64,000 nucleotides of DNA, from positions 188-64,187 of the forward strand of contig JBFELU010000005.1 of NCBI GenBank assembly GCA_041551965.1, given 5' to 3'. The notes under the pieces are model-generated. The model was not told the origin of the DNA. It saw only the letters and a list, made by a program, of their open reading frames with translations, and did not search any database. Both the position numbers and the translations under genes were made by a program. Origin of the DNA: Acidimicrobiia bacterium. GTDB taxonomy: Bacteria > Actinomycetota > Acidimicrobiia > Spongiisociales > UBA11373. Below, piece by piece: positions 16,282 to 56,774 of the stretch (positions are counted from its first letter, which is position 1; each line of letters starts with the position of its first letter).

Positions 16282-17211
16282 TCAGCGGCCGCGGCGGTCG
16301 ATCTTGTACGCAGAACCGGCGTCGGCCTTGGCGTGCTCCTTCATCTCGGAGGCAACGGCCGAAGCCTCCCAGGCGCTGGTGAAGCTCCGCCTGAGGTTGG
16401 TCGCCACACCCAGGGAAAGCGAGACGATGGGGAAAGCGTGGCGCTCCCCCCGCCGGTCGATCACCTCGACATAGCCGCGCAGTGCATCGTGCGGGTCGTA
16501 GTAATCCAGGATGCCGTCGTCGAAGAGCGAGATGACCGTCTTGCAGAACTGGTCGGCCACATCGGGGTCCATCACGGCCACGAAGTCGTCGCCACCGACG
16601 TGGCCCACGAAGCAGGTCGGATCCCCGGTGGCCACGGCCGCCTCGATCAGGGTGTTGGCGGTGAAACTGATCACGTTGTCACCGCGCATGAACCCATAGT
16701 GATCGTTGAAAGCCTTGAAGTTGTCGAGGTCGGCGTGGATGACCCCGAACGGGTCGGCGGCCAAGACACGCCGCTCCAGCTCTTCGGCGATCCGGAAGTT
16801 GCCGGGCAGCCCGGTGAGCGGAGAGAGATCACGCATCTCCTTGGATCGTCGCAGCACGGCCCCGATCCGAGCGACCAACTCCTCGATGGCAAACGGCTTG
16901 GTGATGTAGTCGTCTGCGCCGGCCATGAGGCCTTTCACCCGATCTTCGGTCACGGTCAACGCGGTGAGCAGGACGACGCCGGTGTTGGCCGTGGCGGGTG
17001 AGAGTTGCAGCCGCTCCATCACCGCGAGACCGTCGACCTCGGGCATCATGATGTCGAGCAGGACGAGATCAGGCGGGTCGGCGAGAGCCTTGTCGATGCC
17101 CTCCTGTCCCCCGGTGGCGACGTCGACCCGATACCCCTCGAGTTCCAGATTGACGCGGACGAACTGGACGATGTCCGGATCGTCATCGATCACGAGGATT
17201 CGTTCGCTCAT
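16282..17211 (-). CDS. response regulator with receiver domain and degenerate GGDEF domain (GGDDF)
   Basis: N-terminal REC domain (VIDDDPDIVQFV...DLVLLDIMMP) and C-terminal GGDEF fold (DNFKAFNDHYGFMRGDNVI...HVGGDDFVAVM), with no RxxD I-site. Start codon overlaps the rpe stop. Confidence 0.8.
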   Translation of the reverse strand: MSERILVIDDDPDIVQFVRVNLELEGYRVDVATGGQEGIDKALADPPDLVLLDIMMPEVDGLAVMERLQLSPATANTGVVLLTALTVTEDRVKGLMAGADDYITKPFAIEELVARIGAVLRRSKEMRDLSPLTGLPGNFRIAEELERRVLAADPFGVIHADLDNFKAFNDHYGFMRGDNVISFTANTLIEAAVATGDPTCFVGHVGGDDFVAVMDPDVADQFCKTVISLFDDGILDYYDPHDALRGYVEVIDRRGERHAFPIVSLSLGVATNLRRSFTSAWEASAVASEMKEHAKADAGSAYKIDRRGR

Positions 17212-31056: not shown

Positions 31057-32086
31057 CGATTCCGACCGCCGCGAGGGCGGCCTCTACGGTAGCGGGCGCC
31101 ACGTGCTCCACCTTGGGGACGCCGATGGCGTCGAGGAGCACCATCCGCAGTCCCGTGGCATCACGCTTCTTGTCGAATCCGAGGAGGTCCCTCACCCGGC
31201 GGGGATCGGCGTCGGGCGCTGCGAGCGGCAACCCCAGGCGGGCGATCGCCTCGTTCTGACGCGCTTCATCGGCAAAACCGCACCGAATCGCCGATACTCG
31301 GCCCGCCGCCACCATCCCCACCGCCACGGCCTCGCCGTGGGAGAGATCCAGCGCCACCTCGAGTGCGTGGCCGACGGTGTGGCCGTAGTTGAGGAAGGCC
31401 CGTTCGCCTCGCTCGGTGAAATCGCGCCCCACCACGTCCGCCTTCACCGCCACCGCCCGGACGACCACCTCCTCCAGATCCGCATCGAGGCCCTCCGTCT
31501 CGAGCAGGGCCACGAGCCGCTCGTCTCCGATCATTCCCGCCTTGAGCGCCTCGGCCGCGCCTTGCCGCTTGAGGTCGGGGGGCAGGAGTTCGAGGACGTC
31601 GACGTCGATCACCACCCTGGTGGGATGAGCGAAGGCGCCGACCAGGTTCTTGGCTCCCAGATTGACCCCGGTCTTCCCACCGACCGAGGCGTCCACCGCG
31701 CCGAGCAGTGTGGTCGGAACGTTCACGAACTCGATACCGCGCAGATAGGTCGCCGCGGCGAACCCGGCAGCATCGGTCAACGCTCCCCCGCCGACCCCGA
31801 CGAGGACGTCGGATCGATGCATGCCGAGATCGGCGAGCCATTGATACAACTCGGCGATGACCGGGAGTTCCTTGGCCGCCTCCCCATCGGGGAGGACTCT
31901 CACCTCGGAGCGTGCCCCGGCTTCCCGCAATGCCCCGGCGAGGCCCTCGGCCACGGCGACGACGGTCGGCTGGCAGGCCACCGCGACCGTCACCGATCTC
32001 CGGTCCGATCCCAGCACCGTGCCGGCATCCAGGAACGAGCGGCCCACGTGGATCTCGCTGGCGCCGGGGACCTCGATCACCGCCAC
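31049..32086 (-). CDS. aroB: 3-dehydroquinate synthase
   Basis: GGGALTDAAGFAAATYLRGI...VPTTLLGAVDASVGGKTGVN NAD and substrate motifs. Confidence 0.9.
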   Translation of the reverse strand: MAVIEVPGASEIHVGRSFLDAGTVLGSDRRSVTVAVACQPTVVAVAEGLAGALREAGARSEVRVLPDGEAAKELPVIAELYQWLADLGMHRSDVLVGVGGGALTDAAGFAAATYLRGIEFVNVPTTLLGAVDASVGGKTGVNLGAKNLVGAFAHPTRVVIDVDVLELLPPDLKRQGAAEALKAGMIGDERLVALLETEGLDADLEEVVVRAVAVKADVVGRDFTERGERAFLNYGHTVGHALEVALDLSHGEAVAVGMVAAGRVSAIRCGFADEARQNEAIARLGLPLAAPDADPRRVRDLLGFDKKRDATGLRMVLLDAIGVPKVEHVAPATVEAALAAVGIDA

Positions 32087-32577
32087 AACGCGAGGACCTC
32101 CTCGGCCACTTCAACCGGAGTCCGTTCGTCCGTGGCGACCGTGAAGTGAGCGGCCGCCCGGTAGGCCTCCAGCCGTTCCGCCTCCAGGACGGCGAGAGAG
32201 CCCACCCGATCGGGCCCCGCCAGCAGCGGCCGATCGGCGGCCCCCTCGAGCCTGCCGGCCAGCGTCTCGGGAAGAGCCCGCAGCCACACCACCACCCCGT
32301 GCTCCCGCATCACCGCGCGGTTCCCCGGTCGAAGCACGGCACCGCCCCCACAGGCCACCACGGCATCGCGACCCGCAACCGTCCTCACCGCCACACTCTC
32401 GAGGTCGCGGAACGCCTCCTCACCGTCGTCGGCGAAGATCCGGCGCACCGATCGCCCCGCTGCGCCCTCCACGGTGTCGTCGAGGTCGACGAAGGGGCGG
32501 TCGGTCAGAGCGGCCACCAATCGGCCGATGGTCGTCTTGCCGGCACCCATCATGCCGGTCAACCAAAGCGTGATCAT
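32077..32577 (-). CDS. aroK: shikimate kinase
   Basis: P-loop GMMGAGKTT; ~166 aa. Confidence 0.9.
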   Translation of the reverse strand: MITLWLTGMMGAGKTTIGRLVAALTDRPFVDLDDTVEGAAGRSVRRIFADDGEEAFRDLESVAVRTVAGRDAVVACGGGAVLRPGNRAVMREHGVVVWLRALPETLAGRLEGAADRPLLAGPDRVGSLAVLEAERLEAYRAAAHFTVATDERTPVEVAEEVLALWR

Positions 32578-33722
32578 GGGAAGCGCTCGAGGCGCCGCCG
32601 GTAATGCGCGACCGCGGCCGACAGATCTCCGACGGTGTCGCCGCCGAACTTACGCACGAGTTCGTCGGCGAAGACCCAGCAGACCATGTGCTCGGCCACC
32701 ACCCCGGCTGCCGGAACGGCGCACACATCGCTGCGCTCCCGGATGGCCTTCTCCGGCTCACCGGTGGCGACGTCCACGGTCTGCAAGGCCCGCATGAGCG
32801 TGGAGAGCGGCTTCATGGCGGCCCGCACCCTCACCGGATCGCCCGTCGTCATCCCCCCTTCGATACCGCCGGCGCGATTGGAGACCCGGCGGGCCTCGCC
32901 CTCGACGAGCACGATCTCATCGTGCGCCTCCGAGCCGCGGCGTGCCGCCGAAGCCAGCCCGTCACCGACCTCCACCGCCTTGATGGCGTGAATCGACATC
33001 AACGCCTCCGCCAAACGCGCATCGATGCGCCGGTCCCAGTGAACGTGGCTCCCCAGCCCCGGGATCACTCCGAAGGCCACGACCTCGACCACCCCGCCGA
33101 GCGTGTCGCGATCCTCCTTGGCCCGGTCGATCTCGGCCACCATCGCCTGCTCGACGTCGGCGTCGAGGGTTCGTACCGGTGAGGCGTCGATCCGGTCGGC
33201 GTCGTCGGGCCCGGGCACGAGGTCGGCGGCCACGCTCCCAATGCGCACCACGTGGCTGAGCACCGACGTCCCCACGGTCTCGAGCAGAGCCCTCGCCAGA
33301 TACCCGGCCACGGCCCGGGCTGCGGTCTCGCGGGCGGAGGCTCGCTCCAGGATGTCCCGGGCGTCGTGGGAGTCGTACTTCTGCATGCCGGCCAGATCCG
33401 CATGCCCGGGGCGGGGCGCCGTCAACGGGCGCCGGGCCTCGCCGGGGCCAACGGCCATTTCTTCGACCCACTTGGGCCACTCGGTGTTTCGCACGACGAC
33501 CGCCACCGGCCCGCCCAGAGTCCGTCCGAACCGCACACCCCCCAGGATCTCGAGCTCGTCCTCTTCGAGCGCCATGCGCCGCCCACGGCCGTAGCCGTGA
33601 CGCCGACGAGCCAGTTCGGCCGCCAACCCATCGGACGACACCTCGAGACCGGCCGGGAGGCCCTCGACGATGGTCACGAGGCCCGGCCCGTGAGATTCAC
33701 CCGCAGTCAGAAAACGCAGCAT
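32574..33722 (-). CDS. aroC: chorismate synthase
   Basis: MLRFLTAGESHGPGLVTIVEGLPAGL signature N-terminus; 382 aa. Confidence 0.9.
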   Translation of the reverse strand: MLRFLTAGESHGPGLVTIVEGLPAGLEVSSDGLAAELARRRHGYGRGRRMALEEDELEILGGVRFGRTLGGPVAVVVRNTEWPKWVEEMAVGPGEARRPLTAPRPGHADLAGMQKYDSHDARDILERASARETAARAVAGYLARALLETVGTSVLSHVVRIGSVAADLVPGPDDADRIDASPVRTLDADVEQAMVAEIDRAKEDRDTLGGVVEVVAFGVIPGLGSHVHWDRRIDARLAEALMSIHAIKAVEVGDGLASAARRGSEAHDEIVLVEGEARRVSNRAGGIEGGMTTGDPVRVRAAMKPLSTLMRALQTVDVATGEPEKAIRERSDVCAVPAAGVVAEHMVCWVFADELVRKFGGDTVGDLSAAVAHYRRRLERFP

Positions 33723-33754
33723 GGACGCGGGGATGGTACTCCCCCGAGCCGGGG

Positions 33755-34336
33755 TTACTTCAGGATCGCCTGGCCCACCGCCAGAGTGAAGGCGCTGTCC
33801 CCGAAGAGGAACACGCCGTTGTTTTCGGAGAGGCTGACCACCTTGAAGTTCTCCGCAAAGGTCTCGCCGACCGCCACGATGTAGGTCTCGCCGTCGACCG
33901 TCACCACGGCCTTTCTGGTGCCGTCCTCGTCGCGGATCTCGAGCAACACCACCCTGCGGGTCTCCGGCTCGAAGCCCTCGGTGGTCGTTGTCGCGCCGTC
34001 ACCGGCGGTGGTCGTGGTCGTGCCATCACCGGTCGTGGTCGTGGTGCCCCCGGTGGTCGTCGTGATCACACCGGTGGTCGTCGTCGTGCCTTCGATGAGC
34101 GGCTGGAACGGATCGCGAGGCGGGGCCACCTGGAATGCCGAGGTCAGCCCGAGCCCATCGTCCGCGGCCGCGAGCGGAGCGATCGTCCCCGGCGCGGCCG
34201 GGAGAGGCCCATCCAATCCCGGGCCGGCGGCCGCAAACACTCCGCTGGTGGCGATCAGCCAGACCGAGACGACGGCAGTGGCCACCAGGAGGATCGCCAC
34301 GACCGAGGCAGTCAGGCTGCGCGTTGCGCTTCTCAC
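33755..34336 (-). CDS. PilP-like type IV pilus inner-membrane assembly protein (membrane-anchored, Thr/Gly-rich linker)
   Basis: N-terminal TM anchor, PRDPFQPL motif (compare RSPFQPP in PilP), a long T/G-rich linker, and a C-terminal beta-rich domain (VVTVDGETYIVAVGETF...). Start overlaps the pilO stop; last gene of the pilMNO(P) unit. Confidence 0.55.
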   Translation of the reverse strand: MRSATRSLTASVVAILLVATAVVSVWLIATSGVFAAAGPGLDGPLPAAPGTIAPLAAADDGLGLTSAFQVAPPRDPFQPLIEGTTTTTGVITTTTGGTTTTTGDGTTTTTAGDGATTTTEGFEPETRRVVLLEIRDEDGTRKAVVTVDGETYIVAVGETFAENFKVVSLSENNGVFLFGDSAFTLAVGQAILK

Positions 34337-35133
34337 GGCAAGCCCCCGGACGCTTCACCGATGGTGGGGGGCGGGCCCTCCACCGGCTCGAACTCGATCC
34401 CCTGCCCGGGTTCGGCGGCATCGCCCTCGAGGTTGTCACCCTCCTGCTGCGCCCCACCTTCACCCTCGACCTCTTCCGCGGTGAGGATCGGCAGCAGCGG
34501 TGATCTCGTGTAGAGCTTGATGCTCAGGGCGATCGACAACGAATCCTCTTCGATCCACGGGACGGTGGTGGTCGTCGTGCTGGTCGACGTCGTGCTCGTG
34601 GTGTCCCCACCGGCGACCGTCGTCGTGGTCGTCGTCTCCTCCACCTCCCCGGCACCGGCGGAAGTGGCGGTGATGGCCACGCTGTCGACCACCACGATTC
34701 GCTCCATGTCGTCGAGCCCGAACAGGAACCCGAGGAGCTCGAAATACTCTCCGGTCATGGCGAGCGAGACGCCGATCTCATAGGCGTCGAGACCTTGCAC
34801 CGGAGCGGGCTCCGCCGGCGAGATCGCCTCGAGATTCACCCCCACCTCTTCGGCCAGCGCCGTCACCTCCTCGATGAAGACCGCCAGCTCGGCACGCTTG
34901 GGGATACCCGCCTCCAGCTTGCCGATGGCGGCGAGGTAGGCGACGTCGTTCTCCTGGACCGCCTGCAGCTGGGCGATGGCGGCCCGCAGCCGGTCGGCCT
35001 CGGCAACCGCGGCGTCACGATCATCCCTCAGCTCGGCGATCCGGGCGTTGCGGGGAGAAATGAGGAAGAACCACCAGGCCGCGGTGACCGCCAGGATGAC
35101 GAAGAGGACGAGGGCGGTGACCCGGCGGCTCAT
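34333..35133 (-). CDS. pilO: type IV pilus assembly protein PilO
   Basis: Single N-terminal TM helix, coiled-coil (AELRDDRDAAVAEADRLRAAIAQLQ) and PilO-like periplasmic domain, with a Thr-rich plus acidic C-terminal extension. ATGA coupling with pilN. Confidence 0.7.
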   Translation of the reverse strand: MSRRVTALVLFVILAVTAAWWFFLISPRNARIAELRDDRDAAVAEADRLRAAIAQLQAVQENDVAYLAAIGKLEAGIPKRAELAVFIEEVTALAEEVGVNLEAISPAEPAPVQGLDAYEIGVSLAMTGEYFELLGFLFGLDDMERIVVVDSVAITATSAGAGEVEETTTTTTVAGGDTTSTTSTSTTTTTVPWIEEDSLSIALSIKLYTRSPLLPILTAEEVEGEGGAQQEGDNLEGDAAEPGQGIEFEPVEGPPPTIGEASGGLP

Positions 35134-35753
35134 CCGGGAACCACCACCGGGATCCGCTCCTCGAGCCGGCTGGACACGGCCGCCTCGGTGAGCCCCGTCG
35201 ATGAATCGAAGTTGATCAACGTCTCACCGGTCACGGCCGAACCCGACTCGGAGGCATTCGTCACCCAGGTACCTGCGATGCCGGGGAATTGCTCTTCGTC
35301 GAGCGACCGAAGCCACGCCGACACGTCTCGGAAGTCGAAGCCTCTCCCCGCAACCGCCACCCTTCCCACGAGCCCGGGAGTGCCCGGCAACGACGTCCCC
35401 ACGAAGGAGTCCAGCCAGACGCGCTCGGGAATGAGGCGTCCGAAGTCGTTCAGCAGGCGACCCCACGCGACATCCTGGGCGAGCACCACCGAAGTGAGGA
35501 GCACCTGCTCGGCATACTGAGCCGCCAGGTCGTCGGCGGCGACGAGGGCATTGACCTCGGCGTCGAGTTCGGCGTTGATCGCTTGCTGTTCCTCGAGGGC
35601 TTCCTGGGTCGCGTCGACCCGGGTGTTCCACCACATCACACCCATCACGAGCGCGGCCACGTAGAGGAGTCCGAGCGCCACCCAGAAGCCCACCTTGCGG
35701 CGAGCCGCCAGCCTGCGAACGGCTTCGGGCGGAAGCAGGTTGATCGGTCTCAT
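35130..35753 (-). CDS. pilN: type IV pilus assembly protein PilN
   Basis: Signature N-terminus MRPINLLPPE (INLLP motif that binds PilM), a TM helix and coiled-coil. Confidence 0.8.
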   Translation of the reverse strand: MRPINLLPPEAVRRLAARRKVGFWVALGLLYVAALVMGVMWWNTRVDATQEALEEQQAINAELDAEVNALVAADDLAAQYAEQVLLTSVVLAQDVAWGRLLNDFGRLIPERVWLDSFVGTSLPGTPGLVGRVAVAGRGFDFRDVSAWLRSLDEEQFPGIAGTWVTNASESGSAVTGETLINFDSSTGLTEAAVSSRLEERIPVVVPG

Positions 35754-35759
35754 GGCAGA

Positions 35760-36863
35760 TCAGGCGACATGGGCGAATCGGGCGGTCGGGGGGACGACGA
35801 ACTTGCCCCACATGGCGAGCCCGACCGAGGCCGGGAGCACCGGCTGCAGGTCGAGCAATTGGCTCTCGGTCATCTGAAGGCGCCCCACTCCGACGTGATC
35901 GAGCACCCGCACCGGCTCGACCCGGGTTCCCAGGGCCCGAGCGATCCGGTTGGCGAGATGCGGCAGGCGGGCGCCGTTGCCGGAGACGACGAGGCGGCCG
36001 AGCGAGTGCTCGCCCGCCTGGGTCAGGTAGTAGTTGATGGATCCACGGATCTCTTCGATCAGCGAATCGGCCGTCCGGGTGAGGAGGCGACGCGCCACCG
36101 CCTGGTCGCCTTCGCCCTCCGGCATGCCGTCGGGAGCCACGCCGACGACGCGTTTCAACTCCTCAGCGTCCTCGTAGCCGAGTGACAGCCCGGCTCTGAG
36201 GTCCTCGGTGAACTGGTCCCCGCCGACGGGGAGGATGCGGACGAACCGGGTGATCCCGCCCCGCACGATGGCGATCTGCGACATGGAGATGCCGATGTCG
36301 AGAAGGGCCTGAGGGCCGTCGCCACCCAACATCAGATCTGCCCCGAAGGCGGCTCGCACCAGGCCGAACGCCTGGAGGTCGATCGACAGCACGTCCAGGC
36401 TGGCCGAGGAGGCGACGCCGAGCAACTCGTCGATCATCTCCCGCTGGGCGGCGACCACCAGGATGGAGAGCATCAGCTCCCCGTCGGGGGTGTTGAACTC
36501 CTCGAGCGGCACGTAGTCGAGGACGGCCTCTTCGACGGGAATCGGGATGGCGTCCTCCACCTGGAATGGGAGAGCCTCGACCATCTCGGCTTCCTCGAGG
36601 TGGGGCACATCGACTTGCCGGACTATCACCCGCTGGCTGGCGATGCCGATGACGACACGCTTGCGCGGCAGCTTGTTTCGCTTCCACAACGCCCCGACCG
36701 CCTCGGCGACGGCGCCGGGGTCGACGATCTCGCCGGCGACCACGGCTCCGGGCGGGAGCGGCATGTCGGCGAAGCGCCGCAGCAGCGGCGATGCCTTGGC
36801 GGTGTCGACGACCGCAGCGCGCACCGCGCTCGAACCGATGTCGAGACCAACCGCAACAGCCAT
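35760..36863 (-). CDS. pilM: type IV pilus assembly ATPase-like protein PilM (actin fold)
   Basis: MAVAVGLDIGSSAVRAAVV ASKHA/actin-like phosphate-1 motif; 367 aa; immediately upstream of pilN. Confidence 0.85.
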   Translation of the reverse strand: MAVAVGLDIGSSAVRAAVVDTAKASPLLRRFADMPLPPGAVVAGEIVDPGAVAEAVGALWKRNKLPRKRVVIGIASQRVIVRQVDVPHLEEAEMVEALPFQVEDAIPIPVEEAVLDYVPLEEFNTPDGELMLSILVVAAQREMIDELLGVASSASLDVLSIDLQAFGLVRAAFGADLMLGGDGPQALLDIGISMSQIAIVRGGITRFVRILPVGGDQFTEDLRAGLSLGYEDAEELKRVVGVAPDGMPEGEGDQAVARRLLTRTADSLIEEIRGSINYYLTQAGEHSLGRLVVSGNGARLPHLANRIARALGTRVEPVRVLDHVGVGRLQMTESQLLDLQPVLPASVGLAMWGKFVVPPTARFAHVA

Positions 36864-37038
36864 AGCACCTCCGCGGGGTCGGGCCCGCCTGTCAGTCTCC
36901 GTAGTTACAACTCTGTGATCTGGAGGCTAGCCCTGTGGATAACGAGGACAAAGCATTTCGGGGCGGTGCCATCGGACACCCTCGGTTACCGAAATGAGGC
37001 GTGGTGCGCGCGAAGCGCGGTCTCGAAGCGTGGTCTCC

Positions 37039-37803
37039 TCAGCCGAGATACCACTCGGCGATCCGCTCCCCCCAGGCCAGCCCGACGGCGGCCCCCGCCA
37101 CCATGGAGGGACCGAAGGCAATGGCATCCTTGCGACCCGCCCGCCGCAACGCCAAGAGGGCCAGGGCCACCAATCCCCCGATCGCAAAGGCCGCAAACCC
37201 GCCCACCAGGAGGGCCTCCCAAGACCGGTAGGCGAGGAAGGATCCCAGCAGGAAGGCCAGCTTGACATCCCCGAATCCGAAACCGCCGCGGGCGGCCAGA
37301 GCGACGAGGAAGAGGAGACCGAAATAACCGGCGCCCCCGCCGAGAGCTCGCAGCAACGCAGATGCATCGCCATCGAGCACGGCACCGCCGCTCAACAGCA
37401 CCCAGCCCACCATCGTCCCCGGCACCAGGATCCGGTTGGGGATCCGCTGCAGGTCAAGATCGGTGAGGGTCAAGGTCACGGCGACGCCGGTCGCCCACCA
37501 GTAGGCGGGCAAGACCCAGGCGGCGCCGATGAGCAGGCCCAAGAGCGCAAAGATGGCTCCGGTTCCGGCCTCGACGAGCGGATAGCGAATCGAGATGCCG
37601 GAGCCGCAATCCCGGCATCGTCCTCGCAGCAGCAGCCATCCCACCACCGGCACGTTGTCCCGGGGGCGGATTCGGTGACCGCAGGCCGGGCAAGCCGACG
37701 GCGGCCGCACCACCGAAAGGCCCTGCGGCACCCGATAGGCGACGACGTTGACGAAAGACCCCACCACGAGCCCGACGACGGCGCCGGCGAGAGGGATCAC
37801 CAC
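37039..37803 (-). CDS. pilD: prepilin peptidase (A24 family)
   Basis: N-terminal zinc-binding CxxC..CxxC (CPACGHRI...CRDCGSGI), polytopic membrane protein, catalytic Asp-containing motifs; 254 aa. Confidence 0.85.
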   Translation of the reverse strand: MVIPLAGAVVGLVVGSFVNVVAYRVPQGLSVVRPPSACPACGHRIRPRDNVPVVGWLLLRGRCRDCGSGISIRYPLVEAGTGAIFALLGLLIGAAWVLPAYWWATGVAVTLTLTDLDLQRIPNRILVPGTMVGWVLLSGGAVLDGDASALLRALGGGAGYFGLLFLVALAARGGFGFGDVKLAFLLGSFLAYRSWEALLVGGFAAFAIGGLVALALLALRRAGRKDAIAFGPSMVAGAAVGLAWGERIAEWYLG

Positions 37804-38246
37804 GCGACCCCGGCGCAGTTCTCCATCGCGATATCGAAACGGGAAGACCCGGCGCAGGTCGGACGTCCGGCGTCGTCGCCGTGGAGCACGAGGCGGAGGC
37901 CGAACCAGGTTCCCGTCACCGACCGAGCGTACAACAGCACCCGGCCCCGGTCACCGGTATCGACGTCGGCCACTTCGACGTAGACCCGGGAGTCGCTATC
38001 ACCGTCGAACTCCAACTCCGGCATCACCGACTTCAAGGCGGCGGCGGCGCCGACGAAGCCGCCCGCCTCCGGCTCCAGCGCCGCCTCGGCCTTGGCGGCG
38101 ATGGTGAGGGCGACCTTGACCCGCATGTCGTGGGCCTGCCGCCGGTTGGCCAGCAGGCTGGGAATCGCCATCGACACCAGCACCGCCAGGGCCACCAGCG
38201 TCACCAGCAGCTCCAGCACCGCAAAGCCCGTCTCTCGTTGCCGCAT
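37797..38246 (-). CDS. type IV pilin-like protein (second pilin)
   Basis: Class III signal peptide MRQRETG|FAVLELLV with Glu at +5; 149 aa; C-terminal Cys pair. Confidence 0.75.
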   Translation of the reverse strand: MRQRETGFAVLELLVTLVALAVLVSMAIPSLLANRRQAHDMRVKVALTIAAKAEAALEPEAGGFVGAAAALKSVMPELEFDGDSDSRVYVEVADVDTGDRGRVLLYARSVTGTWFGLRLVLHGDDAGRPTCAGSSRFDIAMENCAGVAW

Positions 38247-38262
38247 GAATGGTCCCCCACGT

Positions 38263-38295
38263 CAGTGGGGGCGAGTCCTGGACTCGCCCCCACTG
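38263..38295 (-). promoter_or_regulatory. long perfect hairpin between pilA stop and the downstream pilin gene
   Basis: CAGTGGGGGCGAGTCC / GGACTCGCCCCCACTG perfect inverted repeat (~14-bp GC-rich stem) with no following U-tract. Confidence 0.5.
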
Positions 38296-38315
38296 GGTTA
38301 CATAGCGCTCGGGTC

Positions 38316-38783
38316 TTACCAGCCGGTCTGCACGAAGCCGGGGGGCGGGTTGTCGGTGGCGGGGCAGTCGCCGGCGAAGGCGCCGGTGCCGTAGTACGTG
38401 CCGTTGGCGGCGGACTCCCACACCGCGAAGGTGTTGCCCGAATCGGCGGTCCGGGCGATACACACCACGTCGGAGTCGGCGACGTTCAGGTCGATGTACA
38501 CGCCCAGCGCCGGATCGGCGTTGATCACGGCATTCGGCTCGAGCTCCAGGATCTCGAGGCCGTCCTCTGTGTAGTCGCCCTCTTCCAGCCAGTACGCCTT
38601 CTCGGAGAGGAGCACATTGCGCACCTCGCTCTGGGCGGCGCGGTCTTGAGCGGACTTCCTGAAGCCGAGGAACGAAGGAATGGCAATGGCGATGAGAACT
38701 GCAATGATCATCACCACGACCATCAACTCGATGAGCGTGAAGCCCTCGTCCTTGGCCAAGCCCTTGCGGATGGCCTTCATCAT
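38316..38783 (-). CDS. pilA: major type IVa pilin
   Basis: MMKAIRKGLAKDEG|FTLIELMVVVMIIAVLIAIAIP canonical T4a prepilin leader and alpha-1 helix; C-terminal Cys pair (C...C); ~155 aa. Strong GGAGG RBS 7 nt upstream of the ATG; TAA stop. Confidence 0.9.
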   Translation of the reverse strand: MMKAIRKGLAKDEGFTLIELMVVVMIIAVLIAIAIPSFLGFRKSAQDRAAQSEVRNVLLSEKAYWLEEGDYTEDGLEILELEPNAVINADPALGVYIDLNVADSDVVCIARTADSGNTFAVWESAANGTYYGTGAFAGDCPATDNPPPGFVQTGW

Positions 38784-38875
38784 TACTGCGAACCTCCTCA
38801 GGTGTCGCTGAAGGATCGAATCTCGACCCACGAGGGGTTATCGGCGCCGCAGGTCGCGAAATTGAGCCTGATTTC

Positions 38876-40105
38876 TCAGCCGTTCTGGATGAGGTTGGCG
38901 ATGTTGAACATCGGCAGGTACAGGCAGATGAGGATGCCGCCGACCACCACGCCCATCACGATGATGAGGATCGGCTCGATGAGGCTGGTGAGCGCGCTGA
39001 TCGTGTCGTCGACCTCGCGGTCGTAGTAATCGGCGACCTTGCTCAACATGGTGTCCAGCGCCCCCGTTTCCTCGCCGACGGCCATCATCTGCGTCACCAT
39101 CGGCGGGAAGATCTCGTGGCGATGGAGCGGCTCGGCCAGGGACTCGCCCTTCTTCACCGAGGACTGGACGTCTCCGATGGCGTCGGCCAGGGTGGCGTTT
39201 CCCGCCGTCTCGGCGACGATGTCGAGGGCTTGGAGCACGGGCACGCCGGTGCGGCTCAGCACCGAGAAGGTCCGGGCGAAACGACTGATCGCCACCTTCT
39301 GCACCACCTTGCCGAAGATCGGGAATCGCAGCTTCAGTGCGTCCCATTGCCGGCTGCCGTTGGGCGTCTTCTTCCATTTGGTGAAGGCGAAGATCGAGCC
39401 ACCGAGCCCGCCCAGCCACAGCCACCACAGGCCGGTCACCAGGCCGGAGAAGTTGATGAGCGTCTGGGTCGGCAAGGGAAGCGCGCCGCCCAGATCGGAA
39501 TACATCTTCTCGAAGATCGGCACGACGAACACGAGCATGGCCATGACGATGAACACGATCAGATTGAGAACGACCACCGGGTAGGCCATTGCCGATTTGA
39601 TCTTCGAACGCAGCCGGGCCGCTGCCTCGAGGGTGTCGGCCAGCCGGGCCAGCGTCTCATCGAGCGCGCCGCCGACCTCGCCGGCCCGGACCATCGAGAC
39701 GTAGAGCTGCCCGAAGACCTTGGGGTGATCCTCGAGCGCGCCGGAGAGGCTGGTGCCCTGTTCGACCTTGAGCCGCACCTGCCCGAGCACGTCACGCAGA
39801 TAGGGGTTCTCGGCCTGATCCTCGAGAATGACCAGGGTCCGGATGAGGGAGAGGCCGGAGTTGACCATGGTGGCCATCTGGCGGCTCATCAGCGCCAGTT
39901 CCTTCGACTTCACCTTCTTGCCGAGCTTGGGGAGGGTGAGCTCCTTCTCGAAGGCCGAGACGCGCTTCTCAGAGACGTTGAGGGGTACCATCCCGCGTTC
40001 GCGCAGGCTGCGGGCCACGGCCGCCGAGGAGTCGGCCTCCAACTCGCCGCTGTGCACCCGCCCCGATTTGTCCTTGGCCCGATAGGCGAAGACCGCGGTG
40101 CTCAT
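38876..40105 (-). CDS. pilC: type IV pilus platform protein PilC (GspF family)
   Basis: Two GspF-type repeats and three TM segments; 409 aa; ATGA-coupled to pilT. Confidence 0.85.
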   Translation of the reverse strand: MSTAVFAYRAKDKSGRVHSGELEADSSAAVARSLRERGMVPLNVSEKRVSAFEKELTLPKLGKKVKSKELALMSRQMATMVNSGLSLIRTLVILEDQAENPYLRDVLGQVRLKVEQGTSLSGALEDHPKVFGQLYVSMVRAGEVGGALDETLARLADTLEAAARLRSKIKSAMAYPVVVLNLIVFIVMAMLVFVVPIFEKMYSDLGGALPLPTQTLINFSGLVTGLWWLWLGGLGGSIFAFTKWKKTPNGSRQWDALKLRFPIFGKVVQKVAISRFARTFSVLSRTGVPVLQALDIVAETAGNATLADAIGDVQSSVKKGESLAEPLHRHEIFPPMVTQMMAVGEETGALDTMLSKVADYYDREVDDTISALTSLIEPILIIVMGVVVGGILICLYLPMFNIANLIQNG

Positions 40106-41667
40106 GTCCGACCTCCGGTCAGGTTGAGGAACTCCTGCACGTCCTGGGCCCGTTCGACCGCTTCGGCGACCGTCACCCGTCCCGCCTTGACCAGGCCGGC
40201 GAGCGCCTGGTCCATCGTCTCCATCCCGTGCTTGCCGCCCGCCTGCATGAGCGAGTGGATCTGGTGGAGCTTCGACTCCCTGATGAGATTGCGGATCGCC
40301 GGCGTGGTCACCATCACCTCGACGGCGGCCACCCGGCCGGCCCCATCGGCGGTGGGCAGCAGTTGTTGGGCAACGACTCCCTGCAGCGACTCGGCCATCT
40401 GCACCCGGACCTGCTGCTGCTGCCCGGAGGGGAAGACGTCGATCACCCGCTCCACCGACTGGGCCGCGCTCTGGGTGTGGAGGGTGGCGAAGACCACGTG
40501 GCCGGTCTCGGCGGCGGTGAGCGCGGTCTCCATCGTCTCGAGATCACGGAGCTCACCGACGAGGATCACGTCGGGGTCTTGACGAAGCGCCTGCCGCAGA
40601 GCCCTGGCGAACGATTGGGTGTCCGCCCCCACTTCCCGCTGATTGATTATCGCCTTGTTGTGGCGGTGCATGAACTCGATGGGATCCTCGACCGTCATCA
40701 CATGAACGGCCCGGGTCTGGTTGATGAGGTTGATCAGCGACGCCAGCGTCGTCGATTTCCCGCTGCCGGTGGCGCCGGTCACCAAGATGAGACCACGCGT
40801 CAAGTTGGCGAACTCACGAACCGCCGGCGGCATCCCCAGTTCCTCGAGCGTCGGCACGTGGTCGGGGATGGACCGCATCACGGCCCCGATCGACCCCCGC
40901 TGGAAGAACACGTTGACACGGAAGCGTCCCCGCCCGGCGACGCTGTGGGAGAAGTCGAGCTCCTGCTCGTTCTCCAGCGCCTCCCGCTGATCGCCGGTGA
41001 GCATGGCGTACACCATCGAACGCAACGGCACCGGCTTCAGCTTCTCGTAGTTCTCCACCACGCGAAGGTCTCCGTGCACCCTGATCTGCGGCGGCGTTCC
41101 CACCGCCAGATGCAGGTCGGAGCCCCCGGCATCGACCAGCACGTCGAGGAGCTCGTTCACGTGAAACTCTGGCTCCTCGATTCCGATTCTCTCCGTCGAG
41201 GTGACCCTTGGGTCGGGGGAGGGACGCGCCCGCTCCCGGTAGGCGGTGTCGATCGCACCCACGAGGGCATCACGGTGGCCCAGCAGCGGCCGCACCCTGA
41301 ATCCCGTGGTCTTGTGGATCCGGGCCACCTTCTCCCGGTCGAACGGATCGGCCATCGCCACGGTGAGTTCGTCCTTGTGGAGACCGAGCGGGAGCGCCAC
41401 GAGATGAGCGGCGAGCTCACGATCGACCGCGTTGACGGCGGCGGAGTCGGGAGCGCCGTCGGTGGCGGGATCGTGGTAGCCCATCCCGAGCCGCTCGGCG
41501 GCAACGCGAAGGATCTCCTCCCGTTTCACCCGGCCCCGTTCCACCATCAGCTTGGCGAGAGGAGCGCCGGCGCGCTCCGAGGCGGCCAGATCGGCCTCGA
41601 GTTCCGCTTCGCTGATGAGGCCCCGATCGAGCAGGATCTGACCGAGCTGGCGCGAGACATCGTTCAT
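40102..41667 (-). CDS. pilT: PilT-type retraction ATPase with N-terminal MshEN/GspII domain
   Basis: PilT/PilU core (Walker A GATGSGKST, Asp box, His box, AIRNLIRE) preceded by a ~150-aa T2SSE_N-like domain (RQLGQILLDRGLISEAELEADL; MADPFD). Start chosen at MNDVSRQL (ATG 41665-41667), giving a 4-nt overlap with the pilB stop. Confidence 0.8.
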   Translation of the reverse strand: MNDVSRQLGQILLDRGLISEAELEADLAASERAGAPLAKLMVERGRVKREEILRVAAERLGMGYHDPATDGAPDSAAVNAVDRELAAHLVALPLGLHKDELTVAMADPFDREKVARIHKTTGFRVRPLLGHRDALVGAIDTAYRERARPSPDPRVTSTERIGIEEPEFHVNELLDVLVDAGGSDLHLAVGTPPQIRVHGDLRVVENYEKLKPVPLRSMVYAMLTGDQREALENEQELDFSHSVAGRGRFRVNVFFQRGSIGAVMRSIPDHVPTLEELGMPPAVREFANLTRGLILVTGATGSGKSTTLASLINLINQTRAVHVMTVEDPIEFMHRHNKAIINQREVGADTQSFARALRQALRQDPDVILVGELRDLETMETALTAAETGHVVFATLHTQSAAQSVERVIDVFPSGQQQQVRVQMAESLQGVVAQQLLPTADGAGRVAAVEVMVTTPAIRNLIRESKLHQIHSLMQAGGKHGMETMDQALAGLVKAGRVTVAEAVERAQDVQEFLNLTGGRT

Positions 41668-43337
41668 ACGACCACCCTCAACACTTCCTTGAACGTGGTG
41701 AGTCCGAGACGCACCTTCTCCATGCCGTCCTGACGCAGGGTCCTCATGCCCTGTTCGACGGCAACCGCCTTGATTTCGTCCGAGGGCCGGCGTTCGACAG
41801 CCAAACGCTGGATCTCCTCGGAGACCAGAAGCACTTCGTTGATGCTGAGCCGCCCCCGGTAGCCGGTTTCGGAGCAGGCCTTGCATCCGACCGCGTCGAA
41901 GACGGTGATCCGTTCATCCTCGGGAAGCCCCATCTCGTGGAGCATCTCTGGGGTGGCGTCCCGTTGCTGACGGCAGCGATCGCAGATACGTCGAGCCAGC
42001 CGTTGGGCCACGATCGAGTCGAGCGCCGATGACACCAGGTACGGTTCGACGCCCATGTCGATGAGCCGCCCCACGCTCGACGCGGCGTCATTGGTGTGCA
42101 ACGTCGACAGCACCAGGTGACCGGTGAGGGCCGCCTCCACGGCGATCTTGGCGGTCTCGGTGTCCCGGACCTCACCGATGAGCACGATGTCGGGATCGGA
42201 TCGAAGGATCGACTTGAGGGCGGTGGAGAACAACAGCCCCGCCTTGCGATGGACCTGCACCTGGATGACGCCGGGGAGCCGGTACTCCACGGGATCCTCG
42301 ACGGTGATGATGTTCCTGTCGGGCTGGTTGAGGACGTTCAGGGTCGAGTAGAGGGTGGTGGTCTTGCCCGACCCGGTCGGCCCGGTGACCAAGATGGCGC
42401 CGTAGGGCTTCGAGTAGGACGACTCGAAGCGCTCCAGCGACTGCGGCAGGAATCCGAGATCGGACAACTTGAGGATCGCGTCGTCCTTGTCGAGGATCCG
42501 GATCACGACCTTCTCGCCGTAGATGGTCGGCAACGTGGCGACGCGCAGATCGATTTGGCGACCCCCGACCCGGAGACTCACCCGACCGTCCTGAGGGACC
42601 CGTCGTTCGGCGATATTGAGCTCGGCCATGATCTTGAGGCGGCTCACCACCGCACCCGACACTGACCGCGGCGTCGTCATCACCTCTTTGAGGACGCCGT
42701 CGATCCGGAATCGCACCCTCAGATCGCGCTCGCCCGGCTCGACGTGGATATCGCTCGCCCGCTCATTCACGGCTCGGGTGACCAGCGTGTTGACGAGCCT
42801 GACGATTGGGGCTTCCTCGACCGCAGCTTCCAGGCCCTCGAGCGGGTCCTCCTCGGCATCCTCGGTGACCAGGTCGGCGAGATCGGCGACGGAGTTGTCG
42901 AGCGCGCCGACCCGCCTGATTGCATCCTCGATGTCCGACCGACTCGCCATCTTGGGCACCACCGTCTGTCCGGTGATGGCCCTGATGTCATCGACGATGA
43001 GGACGTTGCGGGGGTCGGCCATCGCCACGATCAGACGTTCGTCTTCGAAACCGACCGGGATGACCATGTAGCGCCTCGCGAGCGTTTCGGGGATCAACGC
43101 GGCGGCAGAGGGGTCGAGGGTCATCTCCGAGAGGTTCACGAATTCGATCCCCACGTGCCTGGCCAACACACGGGTGACGTCGTCCTCGGGGATGATCTCT
43201 TCCTCGATGAGGATCCGGGAGAGGGTTTCGCCGGTCTGAGCCTGCACCGCCTGGGCGCGCTCGAGATCGGCCTGGGTCACCAGACCCTCGTCGAGCAACA
43301 TCGTCCCGAACACGTCACCGCTTGGGGGCACGGACAC
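41664..43337 (-). CDS. pilB: type IV pilus assembly ATPase PilB (GspE family)
   Basis: N-terminal GspII/MshEN domain (FGTMLLDEGLVTQADLERAQAV; MADPRNV), Walker A GPTGSGKTT, tetracysteine zinc motif CDRC...CKAC. GTG start preceded by GAAGGAG. Confidence 0.9.
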   Translation of the reverse strand: MSVPPSGDVFGTMLLDEGLVTQADLERAQAVQAQTGETLSRILIEEEIIPEDDVTRVLARHVGIEFVNLSEMTLDPSAAALIPETLARRYMVIPVGFEDERLIVAMADPRNVLIVDDIRAITGQTVVPKMASRSDIEDAIRRVGALDNSVADLADLVTEDAEEDPLEGLEAAVEEAPIVRLVNTLVTRAVNERASDIHVEPGERDLRVRFRIDGVLKEVMTTPRSVSGAVVSRLKIMAELNIAERRVPQDGRVSLRVGGRQIDLRVATLPTIYGEKVVIRILDKDDAILKLSDLGFLPQSLERFESSYSKPYGAILVTGPTGSGKTTTLYSTLNVLNQPDRNIITVEDPVEYRLPGVIQVQVHRKAGLLFSTALKSILRSDPDIVLIGEVRDTETAKIAVEAALTGHLVLSTLHTNDAASSVGRLIDMGVEPYLVSSALDSIVAQRLARRICDRCRQQRDATPEMLHEMGLPEDERITVFDAVGCKACSETGYRGRLSINEVLLVSEEIQRLAVERRPSDEIKAVAVEQGMRTLRQDGMEKVRLGLTTFKEVLRVVV

Positions 43338-43395
43338 TCCTTCGAACCTTCCGCTTCTCTGTCGGCAGCAGGGGGAAGGAGCTTGAGAAGGTGCG

Positions 43396-44172
43396 TCAAG
43401 CCGTGCGAACGGCTCCGATCATGACGTCGATCGGTGCGGCACGACCGATCCAGATCACAAAGGAATCGGCCGCCTGCGCAACGAGGTGATCCAGCCCATC
43501 GACTGAGGGAAGACCGAGACGCCGGGCGGTGCCCATGGCCGGAGTGGGGCGGTCGCCGTAGGCGAGATCGAAGAGCCCTTGCGCCTCCTCCACGAGCCCG
43601 TCCGGGAGCTCTTCGCCGTGCATGCCGAGCGGGGTGGCGTTGACGATCACCGCACCGGTGACGGGCCTCCCCCAGGCGACCACGGATCCGGCGGTTCCGG
43701 TTCGCTCCAACACGGCTTCGGCGACGCCGGGACGACGGGCCGACACGAACCGCTCTCGATCGTCGCCGACGGCCACCAGCGCCGCCGCCGCCGCCCCGCC
43801 GGCACCAAGAATCAGAACCGGAGCGTCTCCGGGCAGTTCTCGCTCCGCCCAGAGCGCCCGGATGCCGGTGACGTCGGTGTTGTGGGCGACGACCGCCGAC
43901 CCTTCGGCCACCAGGGTGTTGGCGGCCCCGCACCTCCCCACCTCCGGCGTGACCCGATCCGCCAGCGACGCCGCCAGGTCCTTGTGGGGCATCGTCACGT
44001 TGGCGCCGTCGAGGAGGCCGCTCCGGATCTCGGCAACGGCCTCGGCCATCCCGGCCGTATCGACGCGGCGCGGCCGGTAGCTACCGGAGATCCCGACGGC
44101 TTCGAGCGCCGCTTGCCACATGACCGGCGAGCGTGAGTGTGCCACCGGATCACCGAGGAGCACCAGCCTCAC
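43396..44172 (-). CDS. aroE: shikimate dehydrogenase
   Basis: Shikimate-binding SRSP motif, NTD motif and GAGGAA NADP motif. GTG start at 44170-44172 (VRLVLLGDPVAHSRSP) overlaps the mltG stop. Confidence 0.85.
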   Translation of the reverse strand: MRLVLLGDPVAHSRSPVMWQAALEAVGISGSYRPRRVDTAGMAEAVAEIRSGLLDGANVTMPHKDLAASLADRVTPEVGRCGAANTLVAEGSAVVAHNTDVTGIRALWAERELPGDAPVLILGAGGAAAAALVAVGDDRERFVSARRPGVAEAVLERTGTAGSVVAWGRPVTGAVIVNATPLGMHGEELPDGLVEEAQGLFDLAYGDRPTPAMGTARRLGLPSVDGLDHLVAQAADSFVIWIGRAAPIDVMIGAVRTA

Positions 44173-45278
44173 GGGATGATCCCGTCCTCCCGCGCCTGTT
44201 CCTGGAGCTCGAGGAACTCGTCGAAGTCCGCGGTGAACGCATGATGGCCCTCGGCATCGGCCAGCACGTAGTAGAGAAAGTCGGTCTCGGCGGGTCCGGC
44301 GGCCGCTCGCAACGAGGCGAGCCGGGGGCCGGCAATCGGCGTGGGCGGAAGACCGGGGTTGAGGTAGGTGTTGTAGGGGGACTCGACCTCGAGGTCGTCG
44401 AGGGTGAGTATCCGGGAGCCGCCGCCGAGGGCGTAGACGACGGTGGCGTCGATCTGGAGCAGCATATCCCGGTCGAGCCGGTTGAAGATCACGCTGGCGA
44501 TGATCGGGCGCTCGTCGTCGATGGCAGCCTCCCGTTCGATCATCGAGGCGATGATCACCCCCTCGTAGATCGTGATCCCCCGGGCCTCGAGATCGGACCA
44601 GTCGACCGAGGCGACCCTCTCCTCCGCCGTGGCGGCCAGCGTCTCGAGGACCTCGAAGGCCTTGACGTTCGAGGCGAATTCGTAGGTGTCGGGGAACAGC
44701 AGCCCCTCCCAGTCGGCCAGCTCGGTGGGCCGACGCGGCAGCAGAGAGGACGTGACCGATCCATCGAGGAGCGTGCCGGAGAGCTCGGCGTAGGTGAACT
44801 CCGTCTGACGGGCGATCGAATCGAGCATCTGGTTGACGGTGAGGCCTTCGATCACTGTGATGCGAAACACATCGCCTTCGGCGGGTCCTTCGGTGAGGGC
44901 CGCCGCCGCCCCTTCCACCCCCATACCTGTCGTGAGGTCGTACCGACCGGCGATGAGCCGGTTGCTGATCCCGGTGTTCCTCACGTGTCGCTCGAACTCG
45001 ATCGCGGAATCCACCACGCCGGCATCGGCAAGCAGGCGAGCGATCTCGGCGGCCGAGGCTCCCGAGGGAATCTCGACCTCCACGGCGATCCCCGGCTCGA
45101 CGGCCGGACCCTCGTCTCCCCCGATGGCATCGCTGACCGCGCCGGCCAGCCACCGCATCCCCAGGACCCCGATCACCAGTGTGGCGATCACCAGGCCGGC
45201 GACCGCCACCCACTTCAACCACTCGAGGTTCCAGCGGGGCCCCTGCCGGTACGTCTCGTACTGCTCCCGCTCAGTCAC
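44169..45278 (-). CDS. mltG: endolytic murein transglycosylase MltG (YceG family)
   Basis: N-terminal TM segment and YceG-like domain (...LLFPDTYEF...). Confidence 0.8.
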   Translation of the reverse strand: MTEREQYETYRQGPRWNLEWLKWVAVAGLVIATLVIGVLGMRWLAGAVSDAIGGDEGPAVEPGIAVEVEIPSGASAAEIARLLADAGVVDSAIEFERHVRNTGISNRLIAGRYDLTTGMGVEGAAAALTEGPAEGDVFRITVIEGLTVNQMLDSIARQTEFTYAELSGTLLDGSVTSSLLPRRPTELADWEGLLFPDTYEFASNVKAFEVLETLAATAEERVASVDWSDLEARGITIYEGVIIASMIEREAAIDDERPIIASVIFNRLDRDMLLQIDATVVYALGGGSRILTLDDLEVESPYNTYLNPGLPPTPIAGPRLASLRAAAGPAETDFLYYVLADAEGHHAFTADFDEFLELQEQAREDGIIP

Positions 45279-56723: not shown

Positions 56724-56774
56724 GCTTCCACCGTCGACCATTATCTGTAGTGACTTGACTACTTTCCGCATTCT

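Follow-up and report, generated by a model that had tools for sequence, protein, structure and literature searches.

A conserved fusion of an MshEN-fold domain to a PilT-type ATPase in an Acidimicrobiia pilus operon, and the apparent loss of its cyclic di-GMP site

Background

Can a pilus retraction motor be a direct receptor for cyclic di-GMP (c-di-GMP)? It has been argued in the field that PilT and PilU cannot be regulated by c-di-GMP, being devoid of the N1D/MshEN domain (Roelofs et al., PMC4624772), and the "MshEN-T2SSE" architecture in Supplementary Table 4 of Wang 2016 is represented by PilB, MshE and XpsE examples only (PMC5013675). The question is raised anew by a pilT gene in a 64,000-nucleotide stretch of an Acidimicrobiia bacterium genome (assembly GCA_041551965.1, contig JBFELU010000005.1; this whole stretch is referred to as the window), the product of which carries such a domain in front of its ATPase core. 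An original prediction made from the sequence alone proposed that this domain binds c-di-GMP and that both the extension and the retraction motor of the pilus could be regulated by a nucleotide second messenger. The analysis presented here supports the fusion and points to retention of the domain's fold, and it argues that the canonical c-di-GMP pocket has been lost.

Results

An MshEN/GSPII-type domain precedes the PilT core

The gene and the parts of its product are as follows.

40102..41667, minus strand: pilT, MshEN-PilT fusion of 521 aa, including the stop codon at 40102-40104 (coding 40105..41667); TIGR01420 486.8 bits, PF05157 47.3 bits
41488..41667, minus strand: four-helix bundle of the N-domain, residues 1-60, the MshEN_N subdomain with both 24-residue motifs; AlphaFold2 helices, NF053729 match
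41230..41487, minus strand: alpha/beta subdomain of the N-domain, residues 61-146, including MADPFD, homologous to the partner-binding N1E/MshEN_C subdomain; Pfam, AlphaFold2, Foldseek
41161..41229, minus strand: flexible low-confidence linker, residues 147-169; predicted local distance difference test (pLDDT) score below 50 at residues 147-166
40105..41160, minus strand: PilT-type ATPase core, residues 170-521; Walker A GATGSGKST, TVEDPIEF, DVILVGELRD, His box TGHVVFATLHT, AIRNLIRE

The Pfam MshEN profile PF05157 matches residues 72-147 well above its gathering threshold (47.3 versus 23.1 bits), and a phmmer search of the N-terminal 165 aa against the Protein Data Bank (PDB) finds the GSPII-B domain of PilF as the best match (E=2e-11) and MshE 5HTL at E=2.6e-9. 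AlphaFold2, run with a 51-sequence alignment on the full-length protein and on residues 1-165 alone, models the N-domain with a pLDDT of ~78-92 in the former and 90 in the latter, with helices at residues 2-14, 20-33, 37-43 and 49-59 followed by the alpha/beta subdomain. When the N-domain model is compared with the PDB by Foldseek, the best 20 matches are all GSPII/MshEN domains (E values of 8e-10 to 4e-7 for these folds), among them PilF GSPII-A (9g1w, the top match), X. citri PilB-N with PilZ (7lkm), c-di-GMP-bound GSPII-B (8pdk), MshE (5htl) and XpsE. As judged from profiles and structure model, the fusion of an MshEN/GSPII-type N-domain (residues 1-146) to a PilT core is real. In this respect the original prediction was right, and the strings it quoted, RQLGQILLDRGLISEAELEADL, KLMVERGRVKREEILRVAAERLG, MADPFD and AIRNLIRE, are all present, the His box being TGHVVFATLHT. 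The linker between the two parts is the least conserved segment, with 65% identity to an orthologue that is 84% identical overall.

Recent duplication of the N-domain of the neighbouring PilB was considered as the origin of the PilT N-domain and rejected, the two sharing only 30% identity and being no closer than PilT's domain is to PilB N-domains of other phyla.

The fold is retained but the c-di-GMP site is eroded

The published c-di-GMP site consists of two 24-residue motifs with a 5-residue spacer, (R/K/L)LGxx(LVI)(LVI)xxG(LVI)(LVI)xxxxLxxxLxxQ (PMC5013675; extended in PMC11731258). A triangle of Leu residues from both motifs, L2 of one and L17 and L21 of the other, provides the stacking surface for each guanine, while in MshE the backbone amides of Gly3 and of the next residue read O6 and N7 on the Hoogsteen edge of the guanine and the Gln at position 24 makes hydrogen bonds to ribose and phosphate (PMC5013675). 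In MshE the G11I exchange abolishes binding, mutation of Leu residues of the hydrophobic clusters lowers affinity 10- to 36-fold, and changes of Arg9 and Gln32 cost at most ~5-fold (PMC5013675). The corresponding segments of the window PilT are

41578..41649, minus strand: motif I, QLGQILLDRGLISEAELEADLAAS, residues 7-30; 9/11 key positions, deviations Gln1 and Ser24
41491..41562, minus strand: motif II, PLAKLMVERGRVKREEILRVAAER, residues 36-59; 4/11 key positions, deviations Pro1, Ala3, Met6, Arg11, Ile17, Ala21 and Arg24

Alignment to the MshEN consensus had been named beforehand as the test of whether c-di-GMP is bound as proposed, and its outcome is unfavourable. The 24+5+24 register is preserved and the binding residues are largely absent: position 1 is Gln in motif I and Pro in motif II, Gly3 is found in motif I (Gly9) and is Ala38 in motif II, motif II has Ile for Leu17 and Ala for Leu21, and Gln24 is replaced in both motifs (Ser30 and Arg59). 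Leu cluster 1, on the Gua1 side, is present (L23/L27/L37), and cluster 2, on the Gua2 side, would consist of L8/I52/A56. Even the relaxed pattern of Wang 2016, which still demands Gly3, shows one mismatch in motif I (10/11) and two in motif II (9/11), and the NCBIfam profile NF053729 (c-di-GMP_motif) matches residues 7-58 with 36.0 bits, under its curated cut-off of 38. Among the 51 family members for which motif positions were counted, a single one reaches the equivalent E-value (E<=1e-9). In motif I of these proteins Leu2 is kept in 41/51, Gly3 in 47/51, Leu6 in 50/51, Leu21 in 20/51 and Gln24 in 0/51; in motif II Gly3 occurs in none of the 51 (Ala 25, Pro 9, Val 9, Leu 5), Leu2 in 27 (Pro in 13), Leu17 in three, Leu21 in none and Gln24 in two. 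Gly10 of motif I is altered even in the 84%-identical orthologue.

A similar pattern of substitutions is found in the top Foldseek match, the GSPII-A domain of T. thermophilus PilF (9G1W). This domain is a non-binder of c-di-GMP, while GSPII-B and GSPII-C of the same protein bind it despite a non-Arg first residue (PMC11731258). Motif I of GSPII-A is near-intact (10/11) as it is in the window PilT, and its motif II, SLAEVLVDMGLLSERRIAQTIEDR, scores 6/11 and has Gly3 replaced by Ala, Leu17 and Leu21 by Ile and Gln24 by Arg, the only departure in the window PilT being Ala for Leu21. GSPII-A, however, belongs to a tandem array of three such domains in an extension ATPase, whereas the window domain is single and located on a PilT core. 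Because motif II keeps but 4/11 key positions, Gly3(II) is absent throughout the family, NF053729 stays below its cut-off and the substitutions resemble those of GSPII-A, we infer that the canonical two-site c-di-GMP pocket has been lost from this N-domain while the fold has been retained. With the conserved Arg, Leu, Gly and Gln residues largely missing from the alignment, the proposal that the domain binds c-di-GMP and subjects retraction to second-messenger control fails its own test for the window PilT.

But might the domain nevertheless act as a functional c-di-GMP receptor, so that retraction is gated directly by c-di-GMP and extension likewise via PilB? The preserved fold and register speak for this, as do the intact Leu2, Gly3, Leu17 and Leu21 of motif I together with the L23/L27/L37 cluster, the NF053729 score that falls merely 2 bits short, and the identity of the top sequence match in the PDB, since GSPII-B is a 6 nM binder. 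Moreover, proven binders can do without the Arg at position 1 (PMC11731258), the sequence rules for the MshEN domain have been revised before, and a GGDEF protein is encoded within the window. However, the missing Gly3, Leu17, Leu21 and Gln24 of motif II would leave L8/I52/A56 to form the Gua2 cluster, and the key positions are not conserved in the relatives (motif II G3 and L21 0/51 each), with Gly10(I) changed in the 84%-identical orthologue. Only 1/51 relatives reaches the threshold of the profile hidden Markov model (HMM) as compared to 38/38 in a canonical family of such fusions from Desulfobacterota described below, and GSPII-A fails to bind with a better motif II. We therefore regard a c-di-GMP receptor function of this domain as unlikely.

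Alternatively, motif I could form a half-site for another or smaller ligand, such as a guanine mononucleotide, (p)ppGpp or a different cyclic dinucleotide, or c-di-GMP could be bound across two N-domains in the hexamer. The RQLGQxLV segment is indeed far more conserved than the remaining bundle, and Gly3(I), which in MshE reads the Hoogsteen edge of the guanine (PMC5013675), is the residue kept in 47/51 family members. Then again, this idea is purely inferential, no such ligand being known for any MshEN domain; both motifs contribute to each guanine pocket in MshE (PMC5013675), and Leu21(I) and Leu2(II) are found in no more than 20/51 and 27/51 of the family. We consider it decidedly unlikely.

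The ATPase core is of the PilT type

The PilT/PilU family model TIGR01420 matches residues 170-511 with 486.8 bits (curated cut-off 319.1), and rival ATPase models remain far under their cut-offs (182.8 of 675.65 for the PilB equivalog, 156 of 630 for GspE). All core motifs were found, namely GATGSGKST, MTVEDPIEF with the catalytic Glu, DVILVGELRD (Walker B/Asp box), TGHVVFATLHT and AIRNLIRESKLHQI. Residues 170-521 align end to end with the solved PilTs of G. metallireducens (6OJX, 400 bits, the best), A. aeolicus (2EWV/2GSZ, 394 bits) and P. aeruginosa (3JVU, 363 bits), with which the core shares Walker A and B, catalytic Glu, His box and AIRNLIRE; the match to a PilU structure is weaker (308 bits versus 400 for 6OJX). 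By these sequence features the gene product, encoded beside pilB and pilC, is a PilT-family type IVa pilus ATPase with a complete and catalytically intact core, and from its family membership this core probably powers pilus retraction as characterised PilTs do. These differ from the window PilT in that they are two-domain (N2D+CTD, the latter being the C-terminal domain) proteins of ~345-385 aa and lack an N1D, whereas here 169 additional N-terminal residues, comprising the 146-aa MshEN-fold domain and the linker, precede the core. The departure from the usual PilT is thus one of architecture and not of catalytic family.

An N1D is otherwise typical of PilB, MshE and GspE (PMC4624772) and as such a hallmark of extension motors, so that the protein might be thought of not as dedicated to retraction but as an additional extension motor or one that works in both directions. 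Extension of the V. cholerae MSHA pilus can indeed be promoted by PilT, as reported in PMC9815625. However, the profile scores, the AIRNLIRE motif and the 6OJX alignment assign the core unambiguously to the PilT type, and a bona fide PilB is encoded directly upstream, which makes such a role very unlikely.

The N-terminal region is translated from a coupled start

The mechanical open reading frame (ORF) of pilT extends over 40102..41886 on the minus strand (594 aa). A start at the ATG at 41886 was ruled out, as the additional 73 codons lie inside pilB and the orthologues begin at the equivalent of 41667. The ATG at 41667, which the original prediction had likewise taken as the start, overlaps the stop codon of pilB (41664-41666) in an ATGA and is preceded at 7 nt by a Shine-Dalgarno-like GAGGG, and the full-length orthologues all share this start position, M-(N/S)-(D/E)-x-(S/A)-(R/E)-QLG. 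The ratio of nonsynonymous to synonymous substitutions (dN/dS; Nei-Gojobori method, comparison with the 84%-identical metagenomic orthologue L001) is 0.15 for residues 1-150 (0.08 for residues 1-65, 0.22 for residues 66-150) and 0.07 for the ATPase core. Because of the ATGA overlap, the Shine-Dalgarno sequence, the shared start of the orthologues and the low dN/dS, we conclude on sequence grounds that the N-terminal 150 aa are translated and that purifying selection acts on them. That the real start lies downstream or the region is untranslated, and hence that there is no fusion, is effectively excluded: high-GC genomes do yield long spurious ORF extensions, and the mechanical ORF overruns upstream by 73 codons, but such an artefact would account neither for the dN/dS over residues 1-150 and the N-domain kept with a common start in dozens of orthologues nor for the Shine-Dalgarno sequence with ATGA coupling and the confident fold prediction.

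The fusion lies in a type IV pilus operon beside a PilB with the same domain

The other genes of the pilus cluster are

41664..43337, minus strand: pilB, extension ATPase of 557 aa with its own MshEN (coding 41667..43337); TIGR02538 632 bits, MshEN 80 bits, NF053729 46.2 bits
38876..40105, minus strand: pilC, platform protein of 409 aa; start shares an ATGA with the pilT stop, GGAGG upstream
38316-38831, minus strand: prepilin-like gene
37797-38246, minus strand: prepilin-like gene
37039-37803, minus strand: pilD
35760-36863, minus strand: pilM
35130-35753, minus strand: pilN
34333-35133, minus strand: pilO
33755-34336, minus strand: gene for a 193-aa protein without significant family match, directly after pilO

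In the order pilB-pilT-pilC, two prepilin-like genes, pilD-pilM-pilN-pilO and the 193-aa gene, they make up a complete type IV pilus cluster, of which the part downstream of pilC spans 33755..38831. Because of the ATGA overlaps between pilB and pilT and between pilT and pilC, these three genes are translationally coupled. The gene order, together with the flanks alaS-ruvX-mltG-aroE and aroC-aroK-aroB, is the same in the 54%-identical orthologous locus L002 (439-kb contig; L002:7462-20883), and pilB-pilT(MshEN)-pilC is also found in L001 and in the Actinomycetes metagenome-assembled genome (MAG) L006. The whole cluster is inserted in a string of shikimate-pathway genes, with aroE preceding pilB and aroC-aroK-aroB-pepP following the 193-aa gene (window 29977-45278, minus strand). 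In L002 a 202-aa gene without a Pfam match on record follows pilO, and the 193-aa protein of the window is a candidate lineage-specific component of pilus assembly. In addition, a run of four large ORFs (464, 482, 549 and 440 aa) occupies 53399-60024 on the minus strand beside rel (60106-62286). The last of the four contains the prepilin N-methylation motif GFTLVE together with a weak match to DUF7305, while the other three have no Pfam match; this group may be a minor-pilin or tip-protein cluster of the same pilus.

That the adjacent PilB carries the same domain was correctly seen in the original prediction. It passes NF053729 (46.2 versus 38 bits; residues 10-62), yet its motifs are imperfect, scoring 8/11 and 6/11 by the strict consensus: motif I begins VFG and has Gln21 for Leu21, motif II begins TLS, with Gly3 replaced by Ser and Gly10 by Glu (E10), and has His at position 24. 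PilB fails the relaxed pattern of Wang, so that for this protein the NF053729 threshold and the residue-level criteria disagree. The PilB of L002 is nearer the consensus and still has Thr at Gly3(II).

A further element had been cited in support of second-messenger control.

16282..17211, minus strand: REC-GGDEF response regulator of 309 aa (coding 16285..17211); GGDDF at the A-site

This gene exists, at 23 kb as claimed, and its GGDDF aligns to the GGEEF of PleD; it is no evidence for a functional link to the pilus. The gene lies among unrelated housekeeping genes 3' of the pil operon, no linkage to the operon was found, and its Pfam GGDEF match covers profile positions 5-89 of 161, the N-terminal half alone, with the last ~90 residues matching nothing. 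On account of the distance, the unrelated neighbourhood, the GGDDF A-site and the partial GGDEF similarity we dropped it as supporting context; it says nothing on the regulation of this PilT motor. No PilZ gene was identified near the pil operon.

MshEN-PilT fusions are a recurrent minority form

When 5.8 billion proteins were searched by a word index, the best 120 matches included 78 clusters of 500-560 aa with 54-84% identity to the window PilT. Nearly all of these combine PF05157 with PF00437, and those with a name are called "PilT/PilU family type 4a pilus ATPase" and come from Acidimicrobiia/Actinomycetota MAGs. In an HMM scan of 1.84 billion representatives at 50% identity, the best 149 PilT-type clusters include 58 plain cores, 16 (plus P0080) in which an MshEN-like N-domain is present, 57 whose N-extensions exceed 100 aa and do not match the MshEN-like profile, and 11 tandem cores. 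The notion that PilT proteins are a core of ~345 aa only therefore describes the characterised PilTs and not the metagenomic diversity with its extensions, fusions and tandem cores. No Pfam domain was detected in any of six other N-extensions tested (among P0255, P0261, P0262, P0270, P0279, P0281 and P0294); for some of these the start codon may have been called too far upstream in a high-GC genome, while others may be accessory domains of new kinds. The tandem forms are proteins of ~715-770 aa with two PilT-type cores that are annotated plainly as PilT (P0019, P0022, P0023, P0033, P0047, P0096 and P0241-P0248) and come from Pseudomonadota, Bradymonadia and Lentisphaerota MAGs.

A scan of genome contigs cannot serve as a survey, since its patterns were drawn from the ATPase core, and its figures hold among the matches listed: of 75 PilT-type ORFs located in genomes of many phyla, four carry the N-domain (from Egicoccus and from MAGs of Actinomycetes, Acidimicrobiaceae and Deferrimicrobiaceae, one each), and 75/77 of the N-domain matches are PilB N-domains adjoining plain pilT genes. 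The MshEN-PilT architecture therefore appears, as far as these searches reach, to be a minority but recurrent form that is concentrated in Actinomycetota. On the question of a single origin of all such fusions, a crude neighbour-joining tree of the cores needs at least eight gains or losses; the tree is too rough to decide, and we do not rely on it.

A Desulfobacterota family retains the canonical motifs

The Deferrimicrobiaceae locus led to another large family of MshEN-PilT proteins, ~521 aa in length (P0121-P0240, L073, L080), whose sources are Desulfobacterota, "Deltaproteobacteria", Deferrimicrobiaceae and Syntrophorhabdaceae.

L073:182-1846, plus strand, and L080:8001-9563: MshEN-PilT fusions of this family

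It resembles the window PilT in architecture and length and passes TIGR01420 (394 bits), but its core is only 48% identical, with RVRNAIREGK in place of AIRNLIRE, and its N-domain motifs are canonical, KIGxxLVxxG(L/V)IxxxxLxxxLxxQ and TLGxxL(I/V)xxGFLxxxxLxxxLxxQ separated by 5 aa. Gly3, Leu17 and Leu21 are present in both motifs of 118/118 members, except for Leu17(I) with 117/118, and Gln24 in 117-118/118; all 38 fusions tested pass NF053729, P0121 with 56.6 bits. Also different from the window, the gene is an orphan, lying between DUF2400 and DeoC/DHQS genes outside any pil operon (one long contig). A few other representative clusters are canonical too, for example P0295 (10/10). Since the Desulfobacterota family keeps canonical motifs, erosion is not inevitable for PilT fusions: to judge from their motifs, some PilT-type cores are linked to c-di-GMP modules that appear competent, and the window lineage is not among them. 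The Desulfobacterota family is thus, by sequence, a better candidate than the window gene for a c-di-GMP-gated PilT-type ATPase. Regulation of retraction by c-di-GMP is not supported for the window PilT and its Actinomycetota relatives, while for the Desulfobacterota family it makes a concrete hypothesis.

Discussion

The locus encodes a PilT motor with a conserved domain of the N1D/GSPII/MshEN fold that is flexibly tethered by a linker of ~20 residues, and the gene shares one operon with pilB and pilC and is co-translated with them. The purifying selection on both parts of the N-domain (omega 0.08 and 0.22), the conserved architecture and synteny and the ATGA couplings suggest that the domain is functional. 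But what would such a domain do on a retraction motor? With MshE (V. cholerae 5HTL), PilB and PilF GSPII-B (T. thermophilus 8PDK) it shares the fold, the N-terminal position before a PilT/VirB11-like ATPase, the motif register and a largely kept motif I; different from these extension ATPases, the core is PilT-type, motif II is without Gly3, Leu17, Leu21 and Gln24, and NF053729 stays below its cut-off. The N-domains of GspE/XpsE (2D27/2D28, 2BH1) and of X. citri PilB (7LKM) have the same fold (Foldseek E values of 4.5e-8 to 4e-5 for 7lkm, 2d27 and 2d28; the 2BH1 match is weak, E 0.74) and no canonical c-di-GMP site either; these domains have known partners, GspL and PilZ, in which they differ from that of the window PilT. 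The N1 domain of GspE/XpsE docks with GspL, a PilM-like protein, and X. citri PilB-N docks with PilZ.

Because homologues of the same fold that are devoid of a c-di-GMP site dock proteins, we favour, with slightly better than even confidence, the view that the core retracts pili and that the N-domain, lacking the two-guanine pocket, is a docking or regulatory module and not a canonical c-di-GMP receptor. The domain would then work as its non-binding homologues do and might recruit the hexamer to PilM, PilN or PilC at the cytoplasmic pilus base, or position it there. As the PilB of the same operon carries a homologous domain, the extension and the retraction motor may compete for one docking site.

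Some points weigh against this view. The strong conservation of motif I (RQLGQxLV with its Gly3 and Leu6) could reflect a retained nucleotide half-site and not helix packing alone, and the motifs are imperfect predictors of binding, as the non-Arg first residues of PilF GSPII-B and GSPII-C illustrate (PMC11731258). In addition, the docking role is drawn from analogy with GspE-N1/GspL and PilB-N/PilZ, which makes any partner of the window PilT a putative one, and retraction activity is read from membership in the PilT family. If the nucleotide signal were real, MshEN-PilT proteins would constitute a class of nucleotide-gated PilT in which retraction motors are direct second-messenger receptors, the window PilT sensing c-di-GMP or another guanine nucleotide via the motif-I half-site, and extension and retraction would both be ligand-controlled from one operon; we think this improbable, though worth bearing in mind.

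Conclusions

The fusion is a conserved form of PilT and is undescribed within the searchable literature, no description being found when this was searched for MshEN on PilT. A conserved PilT lineage with an N1D/MshEN domain means that the restriction of this domain to extension and secretion ATPases is an incomplete generalisation. For annotation it follows that a Pfam "MshEN" match alone is no evidence for c-di-GMP binding. The eroded fusions of Actinomycetota and the canonical ones of Desulfobacterota provide a comparison set with which docking by the N1D may be separated from c-di-GMP sensing, and the same comparison indicates in which lineages to look for c-di-GMP-gated retraction. Finally, if both motors of the pilus use the same adaptor domain, they would compete for their docking site, which turns the exchange of motors at the pilus base into a testable question.

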